Assembly (NCBI GenBank): GCA_028699255.1
Contig: JAQVUX010000004.1
Span: 88,668-152,667, forward strand
Reading direction: 5' to 3'
Length of the DNA stretch: 64,000 nucleotides
Source of the DNA: Candidatus Omnitrophota bacterium
GTDB lineage: Bacteria > Omnitrophota > Gorgyraeia > 2-01-FULL-45-10
In this document: positions 5,065 through 63,420 of the stretch, in pieces
Layout of the letters: every line of letters starts with the position of its first letter
How positions within the stretch are numbered: position 1 is the first letter of the stretch
Position numbers and translations under genes: made by a program
Notes under the pieces: model-generated
The model's input: only the letters and a program-made list of their open reading frames with translations
Told to the model about the DNA's origin: nothing
Databases searched by the model: none

Positions 5065-5175
5065 ATACTTATGGAAAATATTACATCATATCCGGCCCTT
5101 TGGCAAGGGCGATTCAAAGTATTTGAAAAAACCGCCGCCCTGTGCTACAATTCTTTCAGCTCTTTGAACAATTGT

Positions 5176-5531
5176 TCCCCTGTAGCTCAGTCGGTAGAGC
5201 ATCTGGCTGTGCACGAGCGAAGCGCCGAGTGCAAAACTCGGCGTACAGCGCCTAAAGTTAGCAGCCTGCGACGGAAACGTCGCGGTGAAAAGCGAGTAAA
5301 TTCAGGGAAATCCGTCAATGTATAATTGGCGGGCTATCCTGAGCCAAGCCTCACAATTGTGGGGAAGGTGCAGAGACTAGAGACTCGCTACCTAAGTCCT
5401 TTCGTCATTGCGAGGCCCGAAGGGCCGAAGCAATCTCAAGGGATATGGTAATGGTATAGTCCGACTCTCCGGGTAACCGGAGTCAGATCGTAACCAGAGT
5501 GTCCGAGGTTCGAGTCCTCGCGGGGGAGCCA
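5176..5531 (+). tRNA. tRNA-Asn(GUU) interrupted by a group I intron; exons 5176-5210 and 5491-5531, CCA encoded
   Basis: The exons give the acceptor stem TCCCCTG/CGGGGGA, discriminator G73, D-arm GCTC-AGTCGGTA-GAGC and anticodon stem TCTGG/CCAGA. The anticodon loop CUGU|UAA and T-arm CGAGG-TTCGAGT-CCTCG follow. The spliced sequence is near-identical in layout to E. coli tRNA-Asn. Confidence 0.8.
5211..5490 (+). ncRNA. Group I intron in the tRNA-Asn anticodon loop, 280 nt, no ORF
   Basis: The intron follows a U and ends in G. It contains R-like CAGAGACTA, S-like TATAGTCC and P-like AATTCAGGGAAAT elements, and a P9-like hairpin CCGGGTAACCGG. Confidence 0.7.
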
Positions 5532-5635
5532 TATTAGACAGGTAAGCCTTTTGGAATCATTCTAAGAGGCTTACCGTCTATGGATTAACGACTTAGGTGG
5601 CAAGCGTGCAGTTCTAAGATGCTGTAGCCCCGACA

Positions 5636-5667
5636 TCCCAAGCACACTTTGCTTGGGATTTTTTATT
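5636..5667 (+). terminator. Rho-independent terminator after tRNA-Asn
   Basis: Stem TCCCAAGCA/TGCTTGGGA followed by TTTTTTATT. Confidence 0.7.
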
Positions 5668-45796: not shown

Positions 45797-46244
45797 GGGG
45801 GTGAAAGGTATCGACTCAGATACGCAGAGCACAAGCAGCATGTAGAGGTTGCTAGGAGGCCTCTTGGCGCAAGCCATTCCTACGGTAACGTGGGGATAAA
45901 ACACCTGGCAAAAAATCAAATGCTGAAAACGTAAAAGTTCCAGCAACGGTGAACGAACTCCTAAGCACCATGCAAGTGGTGCCGGGGCCAGTTCTACCGG
46001 TAGCGTTACCTTTATAAGGTAACCCGTCAGCCGGCCTATTTCCGCGGGGCCGGGTCTGGCGACACTAGCGGGATAGTCCGACGGTGTTTAGCCTTTGGCG
46101 CTTTCGGGCGAAGCTTTCAAAGGATACCTTTTCGAAATTCCGCCTACTGAAGTTCGAAAGGGGAAATTAAAGAGCAGGATAAACATGTAGCGGCTTATGT
46201 TTTGATGTTTGAGGACGGCGGTTCAAATCCGCCCACCTCCACCA
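45797..46244 (+). ncRNA. ssrA: tmRNA (ssrA), about 448 nt, CCA encoded
   Basis: Lies immediately downstream of smpB. The 5' GGGGGUG...GGUAUCGAC pairs with a 3' tRNA-like end: T-arm GGCGG-UUCAAAU-CCGCC, then CACCUCC-A-CCA. The tag reading frame could not be read confidently by eye. Confidence 0.7.
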
Positions 46245-56252: not shown

Positions 56253-56319
56253 CTTATATTGACACCATATCTCTCGAGGCTTATAATTAACATAAATAAG
56301 CTATATTCCTTTGGCTACA

Positions 56320-56456
56320 TATAAAAGGAAGCGGGGGAACCAAGCCACGGTCTACGATAGATCTTGGGGCGAATATCTAAAATATCTACAATGTAGTAGA
56401 TTAGGGTCACTCAACCCGAGCCCGACAGCTAACCCCGTAAGCTAACATGAGAGAAT
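56320..56456 (+). promoter_or_regulatory. Candidate c-di-AMP riboswitch (ydaO/kimA class) in the kdp leader
   Basis: GCGGGGGAACCA, UUGGGGCGAAUAUC, and GGGUCACUCAACCCGAGCCCGACAGCUAACCCCGUAAGC resemble conserved ydaO-motif segments as recalled from memory. An intrinsic terminator follows. Confidence 0.55.
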
Positions 56457-56458
56457 GC

Positions 56459-56495
56459 AAACCAGAGATAGGCATCCTCTGGTTTTTCTTTTTAA
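56459..56495 (+). terminator. Intrinsic terminator / riboswitch expression platform
   Basis: ACCAGAG/CTCTGGT stem followed by TTTTTCTTTTT. Confidence 0.65.
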
Positions 56496-56508
56496 GGGAA
56501 TCCGTATT

Positions 56509-56589
56509 ATGGATATTTTATTTATAGGAATAATTTTGGGTCTCACGATAATATCTTTTGCATTTGTCGCAGTATGCGGCAGATTATAA
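56509..56589 (+). CDS. 26-aa hydrophobic leader or micro-membrane peptide (MDILFIGIILGLTIISFAFVAVCGRL)
   Basis: RBS AAGGGA lies before the ATG. It is the first ORF after the riboswitch terminator. Confidence 0.3.
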   Translation: MDILFIGIILGLTIISFAFVAVCGRL

Positions 56590-56604
56590 GGCTGGGGTAG
56601 TAAT

Positions 56605-56697
56605 ATGACTATTATTTATTGGATAGGCGGCATAGTTTCACTGTTTTTATTTGCCTATTTATTGATCGCTCTATTGAAGCCGGAGATATTTTCATGA
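56605..56697 (+). CDS. kdpF: K+-transporting ATPase subunit KdpF
   Basis: 30-aa single TM peptide ending YLLIALLKPEIFS, as in the KdpF consensus. Confidence 0.6.
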   Translation: MTIIYWIGGIVSLFLFAYLLIALLKPEIFS

Positions 56698-56773
56698 TCC
56701 TTCGGCGTGGCCAACAGTCTGACAATAGCCTTGCTCAGGATTATTATGGTGAGCGAGCGAAGCGAGTCGAACC

Positions 56774-58519
56774 ATGAATTGGAATAATATTATTCAAGGC
56801 GGGATCTATCTTATAGCGCTAATCCTATTAGTTAAGCCGCTTGGGACATATATGGCCCGCATATACGAGGCAAAACCCGTTGGTCTTAACGTATGGTTTG
56901 GGCCTATTGAAAGATTAGTTTATCGCGTGTCAGGTATTAATCCTGAAGCAGGTATGTCTTGGAAGACATATGCTTTGGCAGTAATGATGTTCAATATTAT
57001 TGGCATAGTCGTTGTTTACGCTATTCAGAGACTTCAGCCACATCTTCCCCTAAACCCAATGTCCATACCACAAGTCCCCCCAGACTTAGCTTTCAATACC
57101 GCTGTGAGCTTTGCTACAAACACCAACTGGCAAAGTTATGGTGGGGAGGCCACATTAAGCTATTTTACTCAGATGATGGCTTTAACAGTTCAGAATTTTG
57201 TGTCAGCGGCAACGGGCATGGCAGTGCTTGTGGCTGTGATAAGAGGATTTATCCAAAAACAAACGGAAACCATAGGTAACTTCTGGGTAGATCTTGTTCG
57301 ATCTACATTATATATACTGCTTCCACTAGCTATAATACTTTCCGTTGTATTGGCTTCCCAGGGTGTTGTTCAGACATTTGCTCCGAGCGTAAAAGCTACG
57401 CTTATCGAAGCAACTAAAGATGCTACTGGAAAGATTGTTCCTGAACAGGTGATAGCTCTCGGTCCTGCCGCTTCTCAAATAGCTATTAAACAGCTAGGAA
57501 CTAATGGGGGAGGGTTTTTCAATGTCAATTCTGCCCATCCCTTTGAGAACCCCACGCCTCTGTCAAACTTCGTGGAGGTTTTGGCCATACTTTTAATAGC
57601 TGCAGCATTATGCTATACATTCGGATACATGGTTAAAGACAGGCGCCAAGGATGGGCGATTCTGGCCGCTATGTTAATTATCTTTATCCCATGTCTCTGG
57701 TTATGTACGCACATTGAACAACAGGGGAATCCTTTGTTAAGCAAATTAGGAATTGATCAGAGTGCGAGTGCTATGCAGCCAGGCGGTAATATGGAAGGCA
57801 AGGAAGCACGTTTTGGCATCGCGAATTCAGCTTTATGGGCAACAGCTACGACTGCCGCCTCCAATGGTTCGGTCAACTCAATGCATGATTCTTACATGCC
57901 TCTTGGCGGGATGATATCGATGTGGCTTATGCAATTAGGGGAGGTTATATTTGGCGGGGTTGGTTCAGGTCTTTACGGTATGATCGCATTTATTATTGTC
58001 GCTGTATTTATATCGGGCCTTATGATAGGGCGCACTCCCGAATATTTAGGAAAGAAAATCGAAGCGTATGAAATGAAAATGGCTTCTCTTATGATTTTAA
58101 TACCTCCGATGATTGTTCTTATGGGCACAGCCATTTCGGTAATTGTGCCTGCTGCTAAAAACTCAATTTTAAACCCTGGGCCGCATGGATTTAGTGAAAT
58201 ATTATATGCTTTTTCATCGGCAGGAAATAACAACGGAAGCGCGTTTGCGGGTTTAACTACGAATACGTTTTTCTATAATATCGCTCAAGGATTAGCGATG
58301 TTTTTCGCTAGATACTGGCTTATAATACCGGCTCTTGCGATAGCCGGATCACTTTCTAAGAAAAAGATAGTGCCTGTAAGTCAAGGAACTTTGCCTACAC
58401 ATACGCCGCTTTTTATTGTATTTCTGGTTATGGTTATATTGATTGTAGGTGCGCTCACTTTTTTCCCGGCATTGGCTCTTGGGCCTATTGTTGAGCACTT
58501 AACCCTTACTTCTATATGA
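56774..58519 (+). CDS. kdpA: K+-transporting ATPase subunit KdpA
   Basis: Typical KdpA N-terminus and selectivity-filter-like G-rich loops. Length 581 aa. Confidence 0.9.
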
Positions 58520-60579
58520 AAACAAAATCATTATTCGACCTCGCTATTGTAATTCCGGCGATTGTGGATTCTATAAAAAAATTGAACCCCAAGCATCAGA
58601 TTAAGAATCCAGTTATGTTTGTCGTGTTGGCGGGAAGCGTGCTTACCACAGGCTTATATATTCAGGCCATTGTTGCGCATGGGGAAGCACCGGCAAGTTT
58701 TATTCTGGCTATAACGCTGTGGCTTTGGTTCACGCTAATATTTGCTAACTTCGCGGAAGCTATGGCTGAAGGTCGCGGTAAGGCGCAAGCCGCAAGCTTA
58801 AGGAAGGCAAGACGGGATACCCCAGCGAAGAAACTCTCAAGCCCTAAATATGGCTCAAGCTATGAAACAATTTCAGCTACGACAATAAGGAAAGGAGATA
58901 TTGTTTTAATCGAAGCGGGCGACATTATACCGATGGATGGTGAGATTATAGAAGGAGTAGCTTCGGTTGATGAAAGCGCGATAACAGGAGAAAGCGCGCC
59001 CGTCATACGCGAATCAGGCGGGGATCGCAACGCTGTTACCGGGGGAACGCGAGTACTTTCAGACTGGATAGTAGTACGAGTTAGTTCAAATCCTGGCGAG
59101 ACATTCTTAGATCATATGATAGCGATGGTCGAAGGCGCGAAACGACAGAAGACGCCCAACGAAATAGCGCTTAGCATTTTACTTGCGGTATTTACGATAA
59201 TATTTCTTTTAGCCACAGTAACGCTCCTTCCATTTTCTATCTATAGTGTTGTTAGCGCTGGCCATGGTGTACCTATTACAGTAACAGTATTAGTGGCGTT
59301 ACTCGTATGCCTTATACCGACTACTATAGGAGGCCTTTTGCCTGCCATTGGTATCGCTGGAATGGATAGGATGATCCAGGCAAACGTTATAGCTACTTCA
59401 GGACGTGCCGTTGAAGCGGCAGGGGATGTTGATGTTCTACTGCTTGATAAAACAGGTACTATAACGTTGGGTAATAGACAGGCGGTTGCTTTTATACCGG
59501 CCCAGGACGTCAAAGTCGAAGCATTGGCGGATGCGGCACAACTGGCTTCATTATCTGACGAAACTCCGGAAGGCAGAAGCATAGTGATATTAGCTAAAGA
59601 GAAATACAATATTAGAGAACGCCAAATCCATGAGCTTGAAGCGAAATTTATCCCTTTTACTGCCCAAACAAGAATGAGCGGAGTAGATTTAGGTGATGGA
59701 CGGCAGATCAGAAAAGGCTCAGCCGATGCGATAGAAGATTATGTGAAAAAGCTCGGAGGACTTTTCCCTGAAGATTTGAAATTAAATATTCAGAACATAT
59801 CCAAGACTGGCGGCACGCCGCTAGTAGTAGCGGAACATAAGAATGTATTAGGTGTTATTCAGTTGAAGGATATAGTGAAGGGTGGTATCAAAGAACGTTT
59901 CGCGGAACTGCGACGTATGGGAATCAAAACTATAATGATCACAGGTGATAACCCATTGACAGCTGCGGCCATAGCTGCCGAGGCAGGTATGGATGATTTT
60001 TTAGCGCAGGCGACACCTGAAACAAAACTTAAGCTTATCCGGGAGATGCAGCTTGGCGGTAGACTTGTCGCAATGACAGGTGATGGTACTAATGATGCAC
60101 CCGCTCTCGCGCAGGCGGATGTCGCAGTTGCTATGAATACAGGGACGCAGGCCGCGAAGGAAGCGGGCAATCTCGTAGATCTCGATTCTAATCCTACAAA
60201 ATTAATTGAGATCGTTGAAATTGGAAAACAATTACTTATGACCCGAGGATCATTAACTACTTTTAGTATCTCTAATGATGTTTCAAAATACTTTGCGATC
60301 ATTCCGGCGGCTTTTGTAGGAACATATCCTCAGCTAGACGCGCTTAATATAATGCACCTTACCACGCCGTCTAGCGCTGTTCTATCTGCGGTTATTTTTA
60401 ACGCCATTATCATAATAATGCTAATTCCACTGGCTCTGCGCGGTATACCTTATAAGCCGATGTCGGCAAGTCGCCTTCTGAGAGACAATCTTTTGATCTA
60501 TGGCATAGGCGGCATTATCGCGCCATTTATAGGGATAAAACTAATTGATATGTTGTTGGCTGCCTTGCATTTGGTATAA
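58516..60579 (+). CDS. kdpB: K+-transporting P-type ATPase subunit KdpB
   Basis: DKTGTIT phosphorylation motif. TGDN and [10 protein letters not shown] motifs. Confidence 0.9.
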
Positions 60580-60640
60580 AGCCGATGTCGGAGACATCGG
60601 CACTTAGCTGGCACCGTGGCTTAATAAACTTGGGATAATT

Positions 60641-61219
60641 ATGTTTAGAGAACAGTTAAAATCTGCCATTCTTGTTTTTATAATATTGACGATAATCACA
60701 GGAGTTCTCTACCCGCTATTTGTAACAGGAATTGCTCAAGCTTTTTTCCATACCAAAGCTAACGGTAGCCTTATATATCGAAATGGAAAAATAATTGGTT
60801 CAGCCCTTATAGGACAACCATTTGATGATCCTAAATATCTATGGGGACGGCTGTCGGCCACATCGCCCGTGCCTTATAATTCTAATTCGTCATCGGGCTC
60901 AAATATTGGGCCGTCGAATGGAGCACTTTTAGAAACTGTAAAGTCCCGTATTGAAAAACTGCGTGCAGCCGATCCTAAAAACAAGATGCCTATACCCGTA
61001 GATTTAGTGACATCATCGGCGAGCGGGCTTGATCCGCATATAAGTAAGGCTTCCGCTTATTATCAGGTTCCTCGAATAGCGAAACAACTAGGGCTCTCTG
61101 TAAATATTGTAAAAAACATTGTTGATCAAAACGCAAAAGGGCGTCTCTTTGGTTTAATCGGAGAGCCGGTTGTAAACGTATTGAAGGTAAATATGGATTT
61201 GGATTCATACAAAAAATAG
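60641..61219 (+). CDS. kdpC: K+-transporting ATPase subunit KdpC
   Basis: Single N-terminal TM helix. SGLDPHIS motif. Confidence 0.85.
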   Translation: MFREQLKSAILVFIILTIITGVLYPLFVTGIAQAFFHTKANGSLIYRNGKIIGSALIGQPFDDPKYLWGRLSATSPVPYNSNSSSGSNIGPSNGALLETVKSRIEKLRAADPKNKMPIPVDLVTSSASGLDPHISKASAYYQVPRIAKQLGLSVNIVKNIVDQNAKGRLFGLIGEPVVNVLKVNMDLDSYKK

Positions 61220-61233
61220 AGTATATTATAGAC

Positions 61234-63420
61234 ATGACAAACGAAAATAATAATATCGACGAAATTCTGGCGCGGGTAAAGAGCGAAGGATCTAACCGCG
61301 GAAAGCTTAAGATTTTCTTCGGGGCAATGGCCGGAGTAGGGAAAACTTATTCCATGCTTGAAGCGGCAAGAGTTCTGAAAAAAGAAGGAATTGATGTTGT
61401 TGTCGGTTACGTAGAGACGCATGGACGCGCAGACACAGACGTTTTATTAGAGGGCCTTGAAATCCTGTTTCGTAAAGAAGTGTCATATAAAAACATCAAA
61501 CTTAGTGAATTCGATGTTGATTCGGCCTTAAAGAGGCGTCCCTCTACGATATTGGTTGATGAGTTGGCTCACTCGAACGCCCCCGGTTCTCGTCATCCTA
61601 AGCGTTGGCAGGATGTAGAGGAGCTCTTGGACGCAGGCATTAATGTCTATACGACTCTAAATGTCCAACACTGTGATAGCGCCAATGACGTTGTGGCCCA
61701 GGTTACAGGGGTAACAGTGCGCGAAACCGTCCCTGATACCTTTGTTGAAAAAGCAGACGATATAGAATTAGTAGATCTCCCTCCAGAAGACTTACTTAAG
61801 CGCCTCAAAGAAGGCAAAGTTTATCTTGGTGAGCAAGCCCAGCGGGCAATCCAGAATTTCTTTCAGATAGGAAATCTTATTGCACTGCGCCAATTAGCAC
61901 TACAGTATACAGCTAGGATCGTAGACGCTAAAATGCGATCCTATAAACAGGCGTATTCTATAACAAAGGTTTGGAATGTAAGAGATCGACTTTTAGTATG
62001 CATAAGCGCCAGCCCTCGAGCCACACGGCTTATACGGGCAGGAAAGCGCATTGCTTCCAGCATTGGTGTTGAATGGATTGTTGCTTACGTTGAGCCGATT
62101 TCTCAAATACCTAATAGAAGGGGCAAGGCCGATATAGTAGAGACAATGCGCTTTGCCGAACGATTGGGCGCTGAAACGGTTACACTTACCGGGTTAAATA
62201 TAGCGGAGACTATAATCGAATACGCTCGGTCAAGGAACATCACAAAAATTATTATTGGAAAGCCTGGCAAGCCCAAGTGGCATGAATTTATTTTTGGGTC
62301 CGTGATAAATGCGCTTGCGAGAAAATGCGGTGAGATAGATTTGTATCTTATGAGTGGAGAAACGCAGGAGCCGCCTGCCAAATACGAAGCGCCCACTTTA
62401 AAACCATTCCCATGGAAAGGTTTATTATGGGCTATGGGCGTCGTTGCAATTTGTACCATAGTAGATAGTTTTTTATTTAAGCACTTAAGCCTTGTAAATT
62501 TAATAATGATTTATTTATTAGGAGTTACCTGGATTGCTTATAAGTATGGCCGCAGAGCGTCAATTATAGCCTCGATCTTAAGCGTCTTATCTTTTGATTT
62601 CTTTTTTGTCCCGCCTTATTTCACATTTGCCGTAGCCGATGTAGAATATTTTATAACATTCACAGTTATGTTAGCGGTAGGCGTTATAATAGGAAGTCTT
62701 ACAGGACGACTTCGGCAGCAGACTACAGCTATGCGACTGCGGGAAAACAGGACTCAGGCATTATATTATCTGAATAGGGATTTGGCCAAAACATCCAGTC
62801 TGGATGAAATCTTTCAGATATCGGTTCATTATGTTCAAGAGTTTTTTAAATGTCCGGCTGTTATTTTTACGCCCGTAAAAGGGAAGAGTATCGCAATTCG
62901 TTTTGGCGATACCAAAGTAATGCCATTAAGCCCAAACGAAGAAGCTGTGGCCCAGTGGGTATATGAGCATAGAAAGATGGCGGGGAAGGATACGGACACA
63001 CTTCCAGGCTCACGAGGTATTTATTTGCCGTTAACCGGTGCTGAAAAGACCGTAGGCGTTATTGGGCTATTTCCTAGAGAAGAGAGGCAGTTAAACGATC
63101 CGGATCAATTGCATATACTCGAAATATTCGTAAAACAAACTGCCTCGGCGGTAGAAGGCGCTCAGCTTGCCGCCGCCGCGGTTAAAACTGATGCGGAAAT
63201 CGAAAGCCAGCGTCTGCGAAACTTGCTTTTAAGTACATTTTCTCTGGATCTTCCCGCGCCGTTAAAAATAATTTCTGAAGCCACTGCGGAATTGTTAAAA
63301 CCCGAGAATATGGATGATAAATTAAAACGTAGTGAATTAATTCAGAAGATCCGCGAACAGGCACAGCGCTTGAACGACCTCTCCTCCGAAATGACAAAGA
63401 TAATTAAATCGGAAGAGTAA
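61234..63420 (+). CDS. kdpD: KdpD-like sensor lacking the histidine kinase module (KdpD N-terminal domain, Usp, 4 TM and GAF only)
   Basis: GKLKIFFGAMAGVGKT P-loop of the KdpD N-domain, a Usp region and a TM cluster. It ends after a GAF-like region at 728 aa. No HisKA/HATPase domain and no kdpE follow. Confidence 0.75.
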   Translation: MTNENNNIDEILARVKSEGSNRGKLKIFFGAMAGVGKTYSMLEAARVLKKEGIDVVVGYVETHGRADTDVLLEGLEILFRKEVSYKNIKLSEFDVDSALKRRPSTILVDELAHSNAPGSRHPKRWQDVEELLDAGINVYTTLNVQHCDSANDVVAQVTGVTVRETVPDTFVEKADDIELVDLPPEDLLKRLKEGKVYLGEQAQRAIQNFFQIGNLIALRQLALQYTARIVDAKMRSYKQAYSITKVWNVRDRLLVCISASPRATRLIRAGKRIASSIGVEWIVAYVEPISQIPNRRGKADIVETMRFAERLGAETVTLTGLNIAETIIEYARSRNITKIIIGKPGKPKWHEFIFGSVINALARKCGEIDLYLMSGETQEPPAKYEAPTLKPFPWKGLLWAMGVVAICTIVDSFLFKHLSLVNLIMIYLLGVTWIAYKYGRRASIIASILSVLSFDFFFVPPYFTFAVADVEYFITFTVMLAVGVIIGSLTGRLRQQTTAMRLRENRTQALYYLNRDLAKTSSLDEIFQISVHYVQEFFKCPAVIFTPVKGKSIAIRFGDTKVMPLSPNEEAVAQWVYEHRKMAGKDTDTLPGSRGIYLPLTGAEKTVGVIGLFPREERQLNDPDQLHILEIFVKQTASAVEGAQLAAAAVKTDAEIESQRLRNLLLSTFSLDLPAPLKIISEATAELLKPENMDDKLKRSELIQKIREQAQRLNDLSSEMTKIIKSEE

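Follow-up and report, generated by a model that had tools for sequence, protein, structure and literature searches.

Four classical types of bacterial transfer RNA (tRNA) intron were extended to 21 by Williams 2020 (bioRxiv 10.1101/2020.01.27.920355), and one type from that work, Asn.4Ug, is cited, together with its confusion with Thr.2Ug, by Nakagawa et al. 2026 (mSystems, PMC13011429). The latter survey, of 4,934 complete genomes, reports 28 introns between tRNA nucleotides 35 and 36 (the 35/36 site), distributed over Patescibacteria (19), Cyanobacteriota (3), Nitrospirota (3), Bacillota_A (1), Bipolaricaulota (1) and Pseudomonadota (1); 25 of these 28 introns were called subgroup IA, and four of the Patescibacteria tRNA-Asn introns carry HNH endonuclease genes. 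Precise GTP-dependent splicing at 35/36 was obtained in vitro and was abolished by mutation of the terminal G, the introns spliced in this way being one Patescibacteria tRNA-Asn intron and one tRNA-Asp intron. Omnitrophota are not listed for the 35/36 site in that complete-genome survey, and literature searches on group I introns of tRNA-Asn and of Omnitrophota brought up nothing but mitochondrial or unrelated papers. Here we analyze a split tRNA-Asn gene at positions 5176-5531 of a 64,000-nucleotide (nt) stretch of Candidatus Omnitrophota bacterium DNA (assembly GCA_028699255.1, contig JAQVUX010000004.1, positions 88,668 to 152,667 of the forward strand), referred to below, at its full length, as the window.

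Very probably, the locus is an expressed gene for tRNA-Asn(GUU), from a bacterium that probably belongs to the Omnitrophota, and is split at 35/36 by a 280-nt group I self-splicing intron that has an IC3-like core and no open reading frame (ORF). The element is ordinary in kind, i.e., a further example of a described and experimentally validated class, in a phylum that the survey does not list for the 35/36 site, and by itself it adds no new biology.

The split gene and its intron

The gene is composed of the following parts, in which P and J denote the helices and joining segments of the intron (all coordinates are those of the window, and loci with L numbers are relatives introduced below).

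5176-5210, + strand: 5' exon of tRNA-Asn(GUU), nucleotides 1-35, ending in CUGU (ARAGORN on the joined exons, and guide pairing)
5211-5256, + strand: 46-nt loop of P1, in which 5222-5244 form a 9-bp hairpin (fold; alignment with L014 and L106)
5257-5266, + strand: internal guide sequence GUUAGCAGCC (10/10 pairing at the 35/36 cut only)
5267-5284, + strand: P2 hairpin with a GAAA tetraloop at 5274-5277 (compensatory changes in 6 of 7 pairs)
5291-5369, + strand: P3 5' strand (5291-5297), J3/4, P4 (5302-5307 with 5337-5342), P5 hairpin (5312-5332) and P6/P6a (5343-5369) (Rfam alignment; covariation in P5 and P6a, P4 invariant)
5370-5389, + strand: J6/7 (GCA), P7 5' strand, a 3-nt joiner and P3 3' strand, without a P7.1/P7.2 hairpin
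5390-5449, + strand: P8 with a tetraloop receptor and a distal extension (P8 covariation in 6 of 7 pairs; sequence)
5450-5490, + strand: J8/7, P7 3' strand, P9 hairpin (5463-5484) with a GUAA loop, and the tail AGAUCG, which ends at G5490 (Rfam, covariation)
5491-5531, + strand: 3' exon of tRNA-Asn, nucleotides 36-76, from UAA to GCCA, with discriminator G73 and an encoded CCA (ARAGORN on the joined exons)

ARAGORN was run on the window with default settings, with introns allowed, and on the joined exons. Joining 5176-5210 to 5491-5531 yields a tRNA-Asn(gtt) of 76 nt that folds as a regular cloverleaf, with a U1-A72 acceptor pair and G73; the identity elements of asparaginyl-tRNA synthetase include G73 and the anticodon. 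The insert (5211-5490, 280 nt) begins and ends with G and is preceded by U5210, and neither strand of the pre-tRNA holds an ORF of more than 43 amino acids (aa). The initial annotation, drawn from the letters and ORF translations, had placed the parts exactly: a canonical tRNA-Asn(GUU) with anticodon loop CUGU^UAA, and a 280-nt ORF-less insert that follows a U and ends in G. With default settings, no tRNA was called at the split gene. With introns allowed, the junction slid by two bases and the call became tRNA-Thr(cgt), its 280-nt intron placed at 33/34.

The choice of junction is decided by the guide sequence. Of the four cuts that yield a 7-nt anticodon loop, 35/36 alone is preceded by a U, gives the intron a 3'-terminal G and is served by a guide sequence. 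Specifically, GUUAGCAGCC matches the ligated junction GGCUGU^UAAC at 10/10 positions for this cut and at no more than 8/10 for the others, and only here does G5261 stand opposite U5210 as the canonical G·U wobble of the splice site. When the first 150 nt of the intron were shuffled, a 10/10 match arose by chance in 105 of 20000 trials. Uninterrupted copies offer a second line of evidence. The intron-less tRNA-Asn gene has the sequence GGCTGTTAACC; a metagenome scan with a junction-spanning 30-mer found an uninterrupted gene in 20 contigs, and in L125, L136 and L143 the intact 76-nt gene equals the predicted spliced product at 76/76 positions and is called tRNA-Asn by ARAGORN. The spliced 76-mer also aligns end to end with annotated Escherichia coli tRNA-Asn genes, at 76% identity. 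Given the guide pairing, the intact identical genes and this alignment, the host gene is tRNA-Asn and the insertion site is 35/36, as had been claimed.

A tRNA-Thr(CGU) or tRNA-Thr(GGU) gene whose intron lies two bases (33/34) or one base (34/35) closer to the 5' end is exceedingly improbable. This alternative has the ARAGORN call in its favor, and since GU recurs at both intron ends the junction can indeed be slid; the intron would then, however, end in U rather than G, with a best guide match of just 8/10, while the U1-A72 acceptor, G73 and the entire 76-mer fit tRNA-Asn. In addition, all 107 loci reconstructed below give Asn(GUU), and the same mis-call was documented, and corrected by experiment, by Nakagawa et al.

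The insert is a group I intron by its covariance-model score as well as by its parts. RF00028, the Rfam group I model whose use the initial annotation had suggested as a check, matches 5243-5483 over its full length (model 1-253 of 253) at 70.5 bits, against a gathering threshold of 50 (E = 7.5e-16). The insert further has a P1 with its U·G pair, a terminal G and P10, and a P3-P9 core with the P3/P7 pseudoknot. The group I-like core elements that had been pointed out were recovered as J3/4-P4 (AATTCAGGGAAAT, 5299-5311), J6/7-P7 (CAGAGACTA, 5371-5379) and P7' (TATAGTCC, 5455-5462). In the minimum-energy fold of the P1 domain, GCAGCC (5261-5266) pairs with the exon strand GGCUGU (5205-5210), the final six bases of the 5' exon with U5210 at the splice site, and for P10, GUUA (5257-5260) pairs with UAAC of the 3' exon (5491-5494). 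P10 covaries with the exon across the 107 loci (UAAC/GUUA, UAAG/CUUA and UAAU/AUUA). P3 joins 5291-5297 to 5383-5389 (3' strand ACUCGCU), and P7 is fully paired between GaGACUA (5373-5379, with a bulged A) and UAGUCC (5457-5462). P8 holds the canonical 11-nt GAAA-tetraloop-receptor motif, CCUAAG (5391-5396) with UAUGG (5444-5448).

We drew the P2-P9 model by hand and evaluated it on a MAFFT alignment of 27 relatives. Standard pairs fill 91.3% of pair cells, as opposed to 27-45% when the 3' partners are slid by 1-3 columns; 35 pairs change on both sides, and 0 of 500 shuffles reach the observed values. Compensatory change lies mostly in P2, P5, P6a, P8 and P9, the invariant P4 and P7 being uninformative for covariation. 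An unconstrained fold of the intron recovers P2, P4, P5, P6a, P8 and P9, with z = -6.0 relative to shuffles.

Two local features of the fold were also recorded. The distal extension of P8 (5403-5437, 35 nt, CGUCAUUGCGAGGCCCGAAGGGCCGAAGCAAUCUC) forms two stacked helices and recurs near-verbatim, among the matches listed, in the Omnitrophota locus L121 alone; a dispersed repeat or miniature inverted-repeat transposable element was considered for it and rejected, as it is single-copy in the window and found elsewhere just inside the L121 intron. The P9 loop and 3' strand (5470-5479) read G|UAACCGGAG, resembling the true 3' junction G|UAACCAGAG; this G|UAACC-like appearance is probably a coincidence of the GUAA tetraloop.

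Signals that could define a transcription unit lie on both sides of the gene:

5123-5151, + strand: promoter-like site, TTGAAA-17 nt-TACAAT with a TG extension (consensus scan, 10/12 matches)
5635-5667, + strand: intrinsic-terminator-like hairpin (5635-5659) followed by a T-run

The promoter-like site ends ~25 nt before the tRNA 5' end, within a region (5116-5250) whose alignment with the sequences upstream in L054, L106 and L143 gives 78-88%, and the terminator-like hairpin probably ends the transcription unit. The ~100 nt that follow the tRNA and precede the terminator (5532-5634) contain an 11-bp hairpin, GACAGGUAAGCC...GGCUUACCGUC; this region had no Rfam match and may encode a small RNA transcribed together with the tRNA, or act as a signal for processing.

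Relatives and the history of the endonuclease

Next, we searched for relatives with a motif scan (guide-P2-J2/3) across one genome per species, which returned at least 120 loci. Reconstruction of the split gene, for which a tRNA of 70-78 nt was required, left 107 loci. At least 106 species-level matches reconstruct to tRNA-Asn(GUU) split at 35/36, and with Asn.4Ug (2020, as cited by Nakagawa et al.) and the 2026 survey itself, they put out of date the initial suggestion that host and insertion site are uncommon. By group label of the record, these 106 loci comprise Clostridia and other Bacillota metagenome-assembled genomes (MAGs; 54 loci), Omnitrophota (19), Patescibacteria (8), DPANN-labelled bins (7), Planctomycetia (4), Gammaproteobacteria (4), Spirochaetia, Melainabacteria and Chloroflexota (2 each), and singleton groups (4 in all).

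Among these matches, the closest introns are those of Omnitrophota loci, with 70-75% core identity. The exons of L083, L054 and L014 are identical to those of the window, the flanks of Omnitrophota loci encode proteins that share 67-76% identity with proteins of the window, and a homologue of the window gene at 2-502 adjoins the split tRNA in L083, L106 and L034. On this similarity, the window probably comes from a member of the Omnitrophota. A look-up by exact protein match found the locus solely on a 10-kb Logan contig from SRR22315503.

Three loci stand apart from this pattern. L014 (JAKLHJ010000098.1, 861 bp) is binned as "Patescibacteria group bacterium", yet its exons are the same as in the window and the Omnitrophota loci, and of all introns among the matches listed, its own comes closest to that of the window; the bin assignment is probably wrong. 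On an activated-sludge contig, L143:313-800 (minus strand) combines the promoter of the window, 29 nt duplicated from the 5' end of tRNA-Asn and an insert of ~330 nt with a small ORF (MYYVYVLRSKK..., a candidate GIY-YIG-like protein by eye), followed by an intact tRNA-Asn equal to the spliced product of the window. From this arrangement, a different mobile element appears to target the same tRNA-Asn gene. Finally, L002 (IMG/VR IMGVR_UViG_3300031994_003366, minus strand, motif at 2289-2321) is viral, and carries a tRNA-Gln, the 5' half of an Asn-like tRNA and an intron of the window family whose coding-looking sequence is placed after the P6 region rather than in P1; a complete split gene was not reconstructed there.

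Relatives differ in what their P1 loop contains. In 14 relatives among the matches listed, introns of 505-645 nt hold a P1-loop ORF of 64-173 aa, which PHROGs identifies as an HNH endonuclease (phrog_2255, E about 1e-26). Pfam returned no match to this ORF at E <= 0.01, and Pfam-only surveys may therefore under-count intron endonucleases. The ORF reads on through the guide sequence and P2 (...CANCHRELHAKLAAS...), and at several loci it stops at a UAA spanning P3/J3-4. P1-loop lengths form a series, from 314-362 nt with an ORF, through 267 and 116 nt without an ORF of at least 60 aa, to 20-67 nt and 0-10 nt. L106, L014, L016, L058 and L107, from Omnitrophota and Planctomycetia MAGs, share with the window a 70-75% identical core, identical or near-identical exons and the same 5' leader; these and others carry an HNH ORF of 111-173 aa in P1, whereas the window is without the entire cassette. 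Specifically, the 46-nt P1 loop of the window aligns with the pre-ORF leader of L106 (intron nt 1-39, including the 9-bp hairpin at 5222-5244), after which the alignment jumps ~320 nt to the guide sequence.

The simplest reading of this alignment, which we infer from sequence comparison, is that the endonuclease cassette was lost from an L106-like ancestor; the reverse direction, a gain of the cassette, is less likely. In close relatives the HNH gene stands at the position of this 46-nt P1 loop, so that the window copy is most likely one that has lost its endonuclease, and would be immobile, vertically inherited and, by prediction, still splicing. Taking the ORF series and the intact identical genes together, all stages of the homing cycle are visible around one site. 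The Omnitrophota relatives thereby offer a one-site series, running from endonuclease-bearing through intermediate and leader-only forms to a minimal P1 loop and the empty site, which is useful for the study of the cycle of homing-endonuclease gain and loss.

Among the matches listed, seven loci with a DPANN archaeal label (Pacearchaeota, Woesearchaeota, Nanoarchaeota) also have a tRNA-Asn(GUU) split at 35/36 by an intron of the window family (L004:1943-2182, L042:7328-7612, L011:96-326, L084:2897-3142, L100:4129-4351, L114:3627-3849 and L052:5491-5687). RF00028 scores six of the seven introns at 72-97 bits and finds nothing above threshold in L052; L011 and L052 also carry an HNH ORF. The exons of these loci have a G1-C72 acceptor pair, not the bacterial U1-A72, and the contigs of L004 and L114 look archaeal because their flanks encode aIF2-beta (PF01873), deoxyhypusine synthase (PF01916) and PNO1-like KH proteins. 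Nawrocki 2018 reported archaeal group I introns in rRNA genes only, and Williams 2020 put one Pacearchaeota case down to mis-binning; for archaeal tRNA genes, none are reported in the searchable literature. The presence of this family in contigs with archaeal marker genes bears on the transfer of self-splicing introns across domains.

A broader picture can be proposed from these data, tentatively and as more doubtful than probable: the window intron may belong to a large IC3-like tRNA-Asn 35/36 clade, largely uncatalogued in the searchable literature, which was spread by a P1-loop HNH endonuclease whose frame runs through the guide and P2, and which moved among Omnitrophota, Planctomycetota, gut Clostridia, Patescibacteria, Melainabacteria and Spirochaetia, and into DPANN tRNA-Asn genes.

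Subgroup, splicing and alternative readings

The core of the window intron is IC3-like (Azoarcus-type), a subgroup assigned from helix topology. P7 ends at 5379 and P3' (5383-5389) follows after only 3 nt, directly before a P8 that opens ACCUAAG...UAUGGU; the IC3 introns of tRNA-Leu, tRNA-Arg and tRNA-fMet in Table S5 of Nakagawa et al. have this same P7/P3'/P8 layout. P2.1, P5abc and P7.1/P7.2 are all absent, and the GAAA loop of P2 is matched by an 11-nt receptor in P8, as in IC3. The P7.1/P7.2 insertion between P7 and P3' that marks subgroup IA is thus missing from the window intron, whereas all five published tRNA-Asn introns that we compared (from Nitrospirota, Bipolaricaulota and Cyanobacteriota, and called IA1 or IA2) have a hairpin of ~29 nt at this place.

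We infer splicing and tertiary docking for this intron from its fold and from established group I chemistry, as follows. In the folded transcript, GCAGCC would pair with the exon GGCUGU to form P1, with the G·U pair at U35. Free guanosine bound in P7 would attack after U5210, the terminal G5490 would next enter the same guanosine site, and GUUA, holding the 3' exon UAAC in P10, would allow ligation of the exons to the mature tRNA-Asn. A probable tertiary contact is that of the GAAA loop of P2 with the CCUAAG/UAUGG receptor in P8. The intron would persist by vertical inheritance because it still splices. A switch helix between GCUGUGC (5206-5212) and GUACAGC (5243-5249), hiding the 5' splice site, was also considered and rejected, being 7.6 kcal/mol weaker than the P1 fold and found in L106 only.

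Several observations weigh against a splicing-competent, IC3-like intron. The subgroup was judged from topology, measures of sequence having failed to separate the classes: MAFFT identity, Needleman-Wunsch scores and a family hidden Markov model rate IC3 and IA-called introns about alike, the last giving both published sets 47-77 bits. P5 offers the GUAA loop of P9 no canonical receptor. Compared with L106, one small hairpin of the leader is lost through a 3-nt deletion, so that some peripheral decay is visible. Finally, the experimentally spliced Asn intron of Nakagawa et al. belongs to the IA-called group and is not IC3-like.

Two other functional readings can be set against an intron that simply persists by splicing. 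The gene could be a decaying pseudogene in which both the endonuclease and the ability to splice were lost, tRNA-Asn being supplied by another gene. The missing endonuclease ORF and the small leader deletion would agree with such decay, as would the unusual 35-nt extension of P8, but the extension is a regular helix that is conserved in L121. All helices of the core are intact and match a family whose structure is clearly under selection, the guide sequence pairs perfectly, and the exons are identical both to the intact genes and to those of the relatives L014, L083 and L054. The gene retains a strong promoter-like site and a terminator, and default ARAGORN finds no second tRNA-Asn within the 64-kb window. 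Taken together, this makes a pseudogene highly unlikely.

Alternatively, the intron may be kept since its splicing regulates the supply of mature tRNA-Asn, and not as the tolerated remnant of a parasite. RNA-based regulation has been raised as a speculation for Patescibacteria (Nakagawa et al.). Wide retention of the family without endonuclease genes in many lineages would suit this idea, as would the leader hairpin kept in the P1 loop after ORF loss. Yet nothing in the sequence requires regulation, the alternative helix that might mediate it is less stable than P1 (-22.3 vs. -29.9 kcal/mol) and is not conserved outside L106, and the occurrence of near-identical tRNA genes with and without the intron is consistent with a neutral selfish element. 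We consider a regulatory role unlikely, and retain the reading of a vertically inherited intron that has lost its endonuclease and is predicted to splice.

Surroundings and comparison with described introns

Elsewhere in the window, two other RNA elements drew attention. The transfer-messenger RNA (tmRNA) gene at 45797-46244 is unusually long (448 nt vs. 374 positions of the Rfam model), with large insertions, and the tag read by ARAGORN is atypical (AENVKVPATVNELLSTMQVVPGPVLPVALPL, 31 residues) and may be mis-parsed. A cyclic di-AMP riboswitch (56289-56458, 84 bits) immediately precedes two large ORFs of 581 and 687 aa (region 56774-63420), after which comes a KdpD-type sensor kinase at 61234-63420, KdpD being the sole gene checked with Pfam. 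From its layout, 56289-63420 looks like a riboswitch-controlled potassium-uptake (kdp) operon.

For genome annotation, the split gene matters in that standard tRNA finders miss or mis-name it, so that a genome such as this would be scored as lacking tRNA-Asn, with a bias in completeness estimates, a point already made by Nakagawa et al.

Compared with Asn.4Ug and the class described in that survey, the window intron has the same host tRNA, the same 35/36 site and the same rule of U at position -1 and a terminal G. The guide logic is also shared, in that xUxGCAGCx runs straight into a P2 with a GNRA cap; both are mis-called as tRNA-Thr at 33/34 by the same tools, and both have relatives with HNH genes in the P1 loop. 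The described class is, however, mostly IA, and the P7-P3' hairpin of ~29 nt seen in the five introns compared is absent from the window. One published Asn 35/36 intron, that of Bacillota_A GCA_022846035.1 (Table S5, PMC13011429), is called IC3; it shares TTAGCAGCC-N6-GGAAAC-N6-GTGAAAA with the window and, like it, runs directly from P7 to P3' to P8, has a P8 of the CCUAA...AUGG type and lacks an ORF. The two differ in that the Bacillota_A intron is shorter (210 nt), has neither the P8 extension nor the 46-nt leader in P1, and is only ~52% identical overall.

The core itself resembles the IC3 introns of cyanobacterial tRNA-Leu, tRNA-Arg and tRNA-fMet genes, which have a comparably compact core, a P2 with a GAAA loop and the CCUAAG/UAUGG receptor in P8. 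Strings from the window core (...AAUUCAGGGAAA..., ...AUCCUGAGCCAAGCC... and ...GGUGCAGAGACUAGA...) are nearly identical to those of cyanobacterial tRNA-Leu introns, and, as in tRNA-Arg(CCU) introns, there is a single P9 hairpin and a distance of 27 nt from AUAGUCC to the terminal G. The Azoarcus tRNA-Ile IC3 intron presumably shares this core. From the Azoarcus and cyanobacterial IC3 introns, the window intron differs in its host tRNA, in its 35/36 site (as opposed to 33/34, 34/35 or 36/37), and in its long P1 loop, its GUAA loop in P9 and a P5 without the 11-nt receptor.

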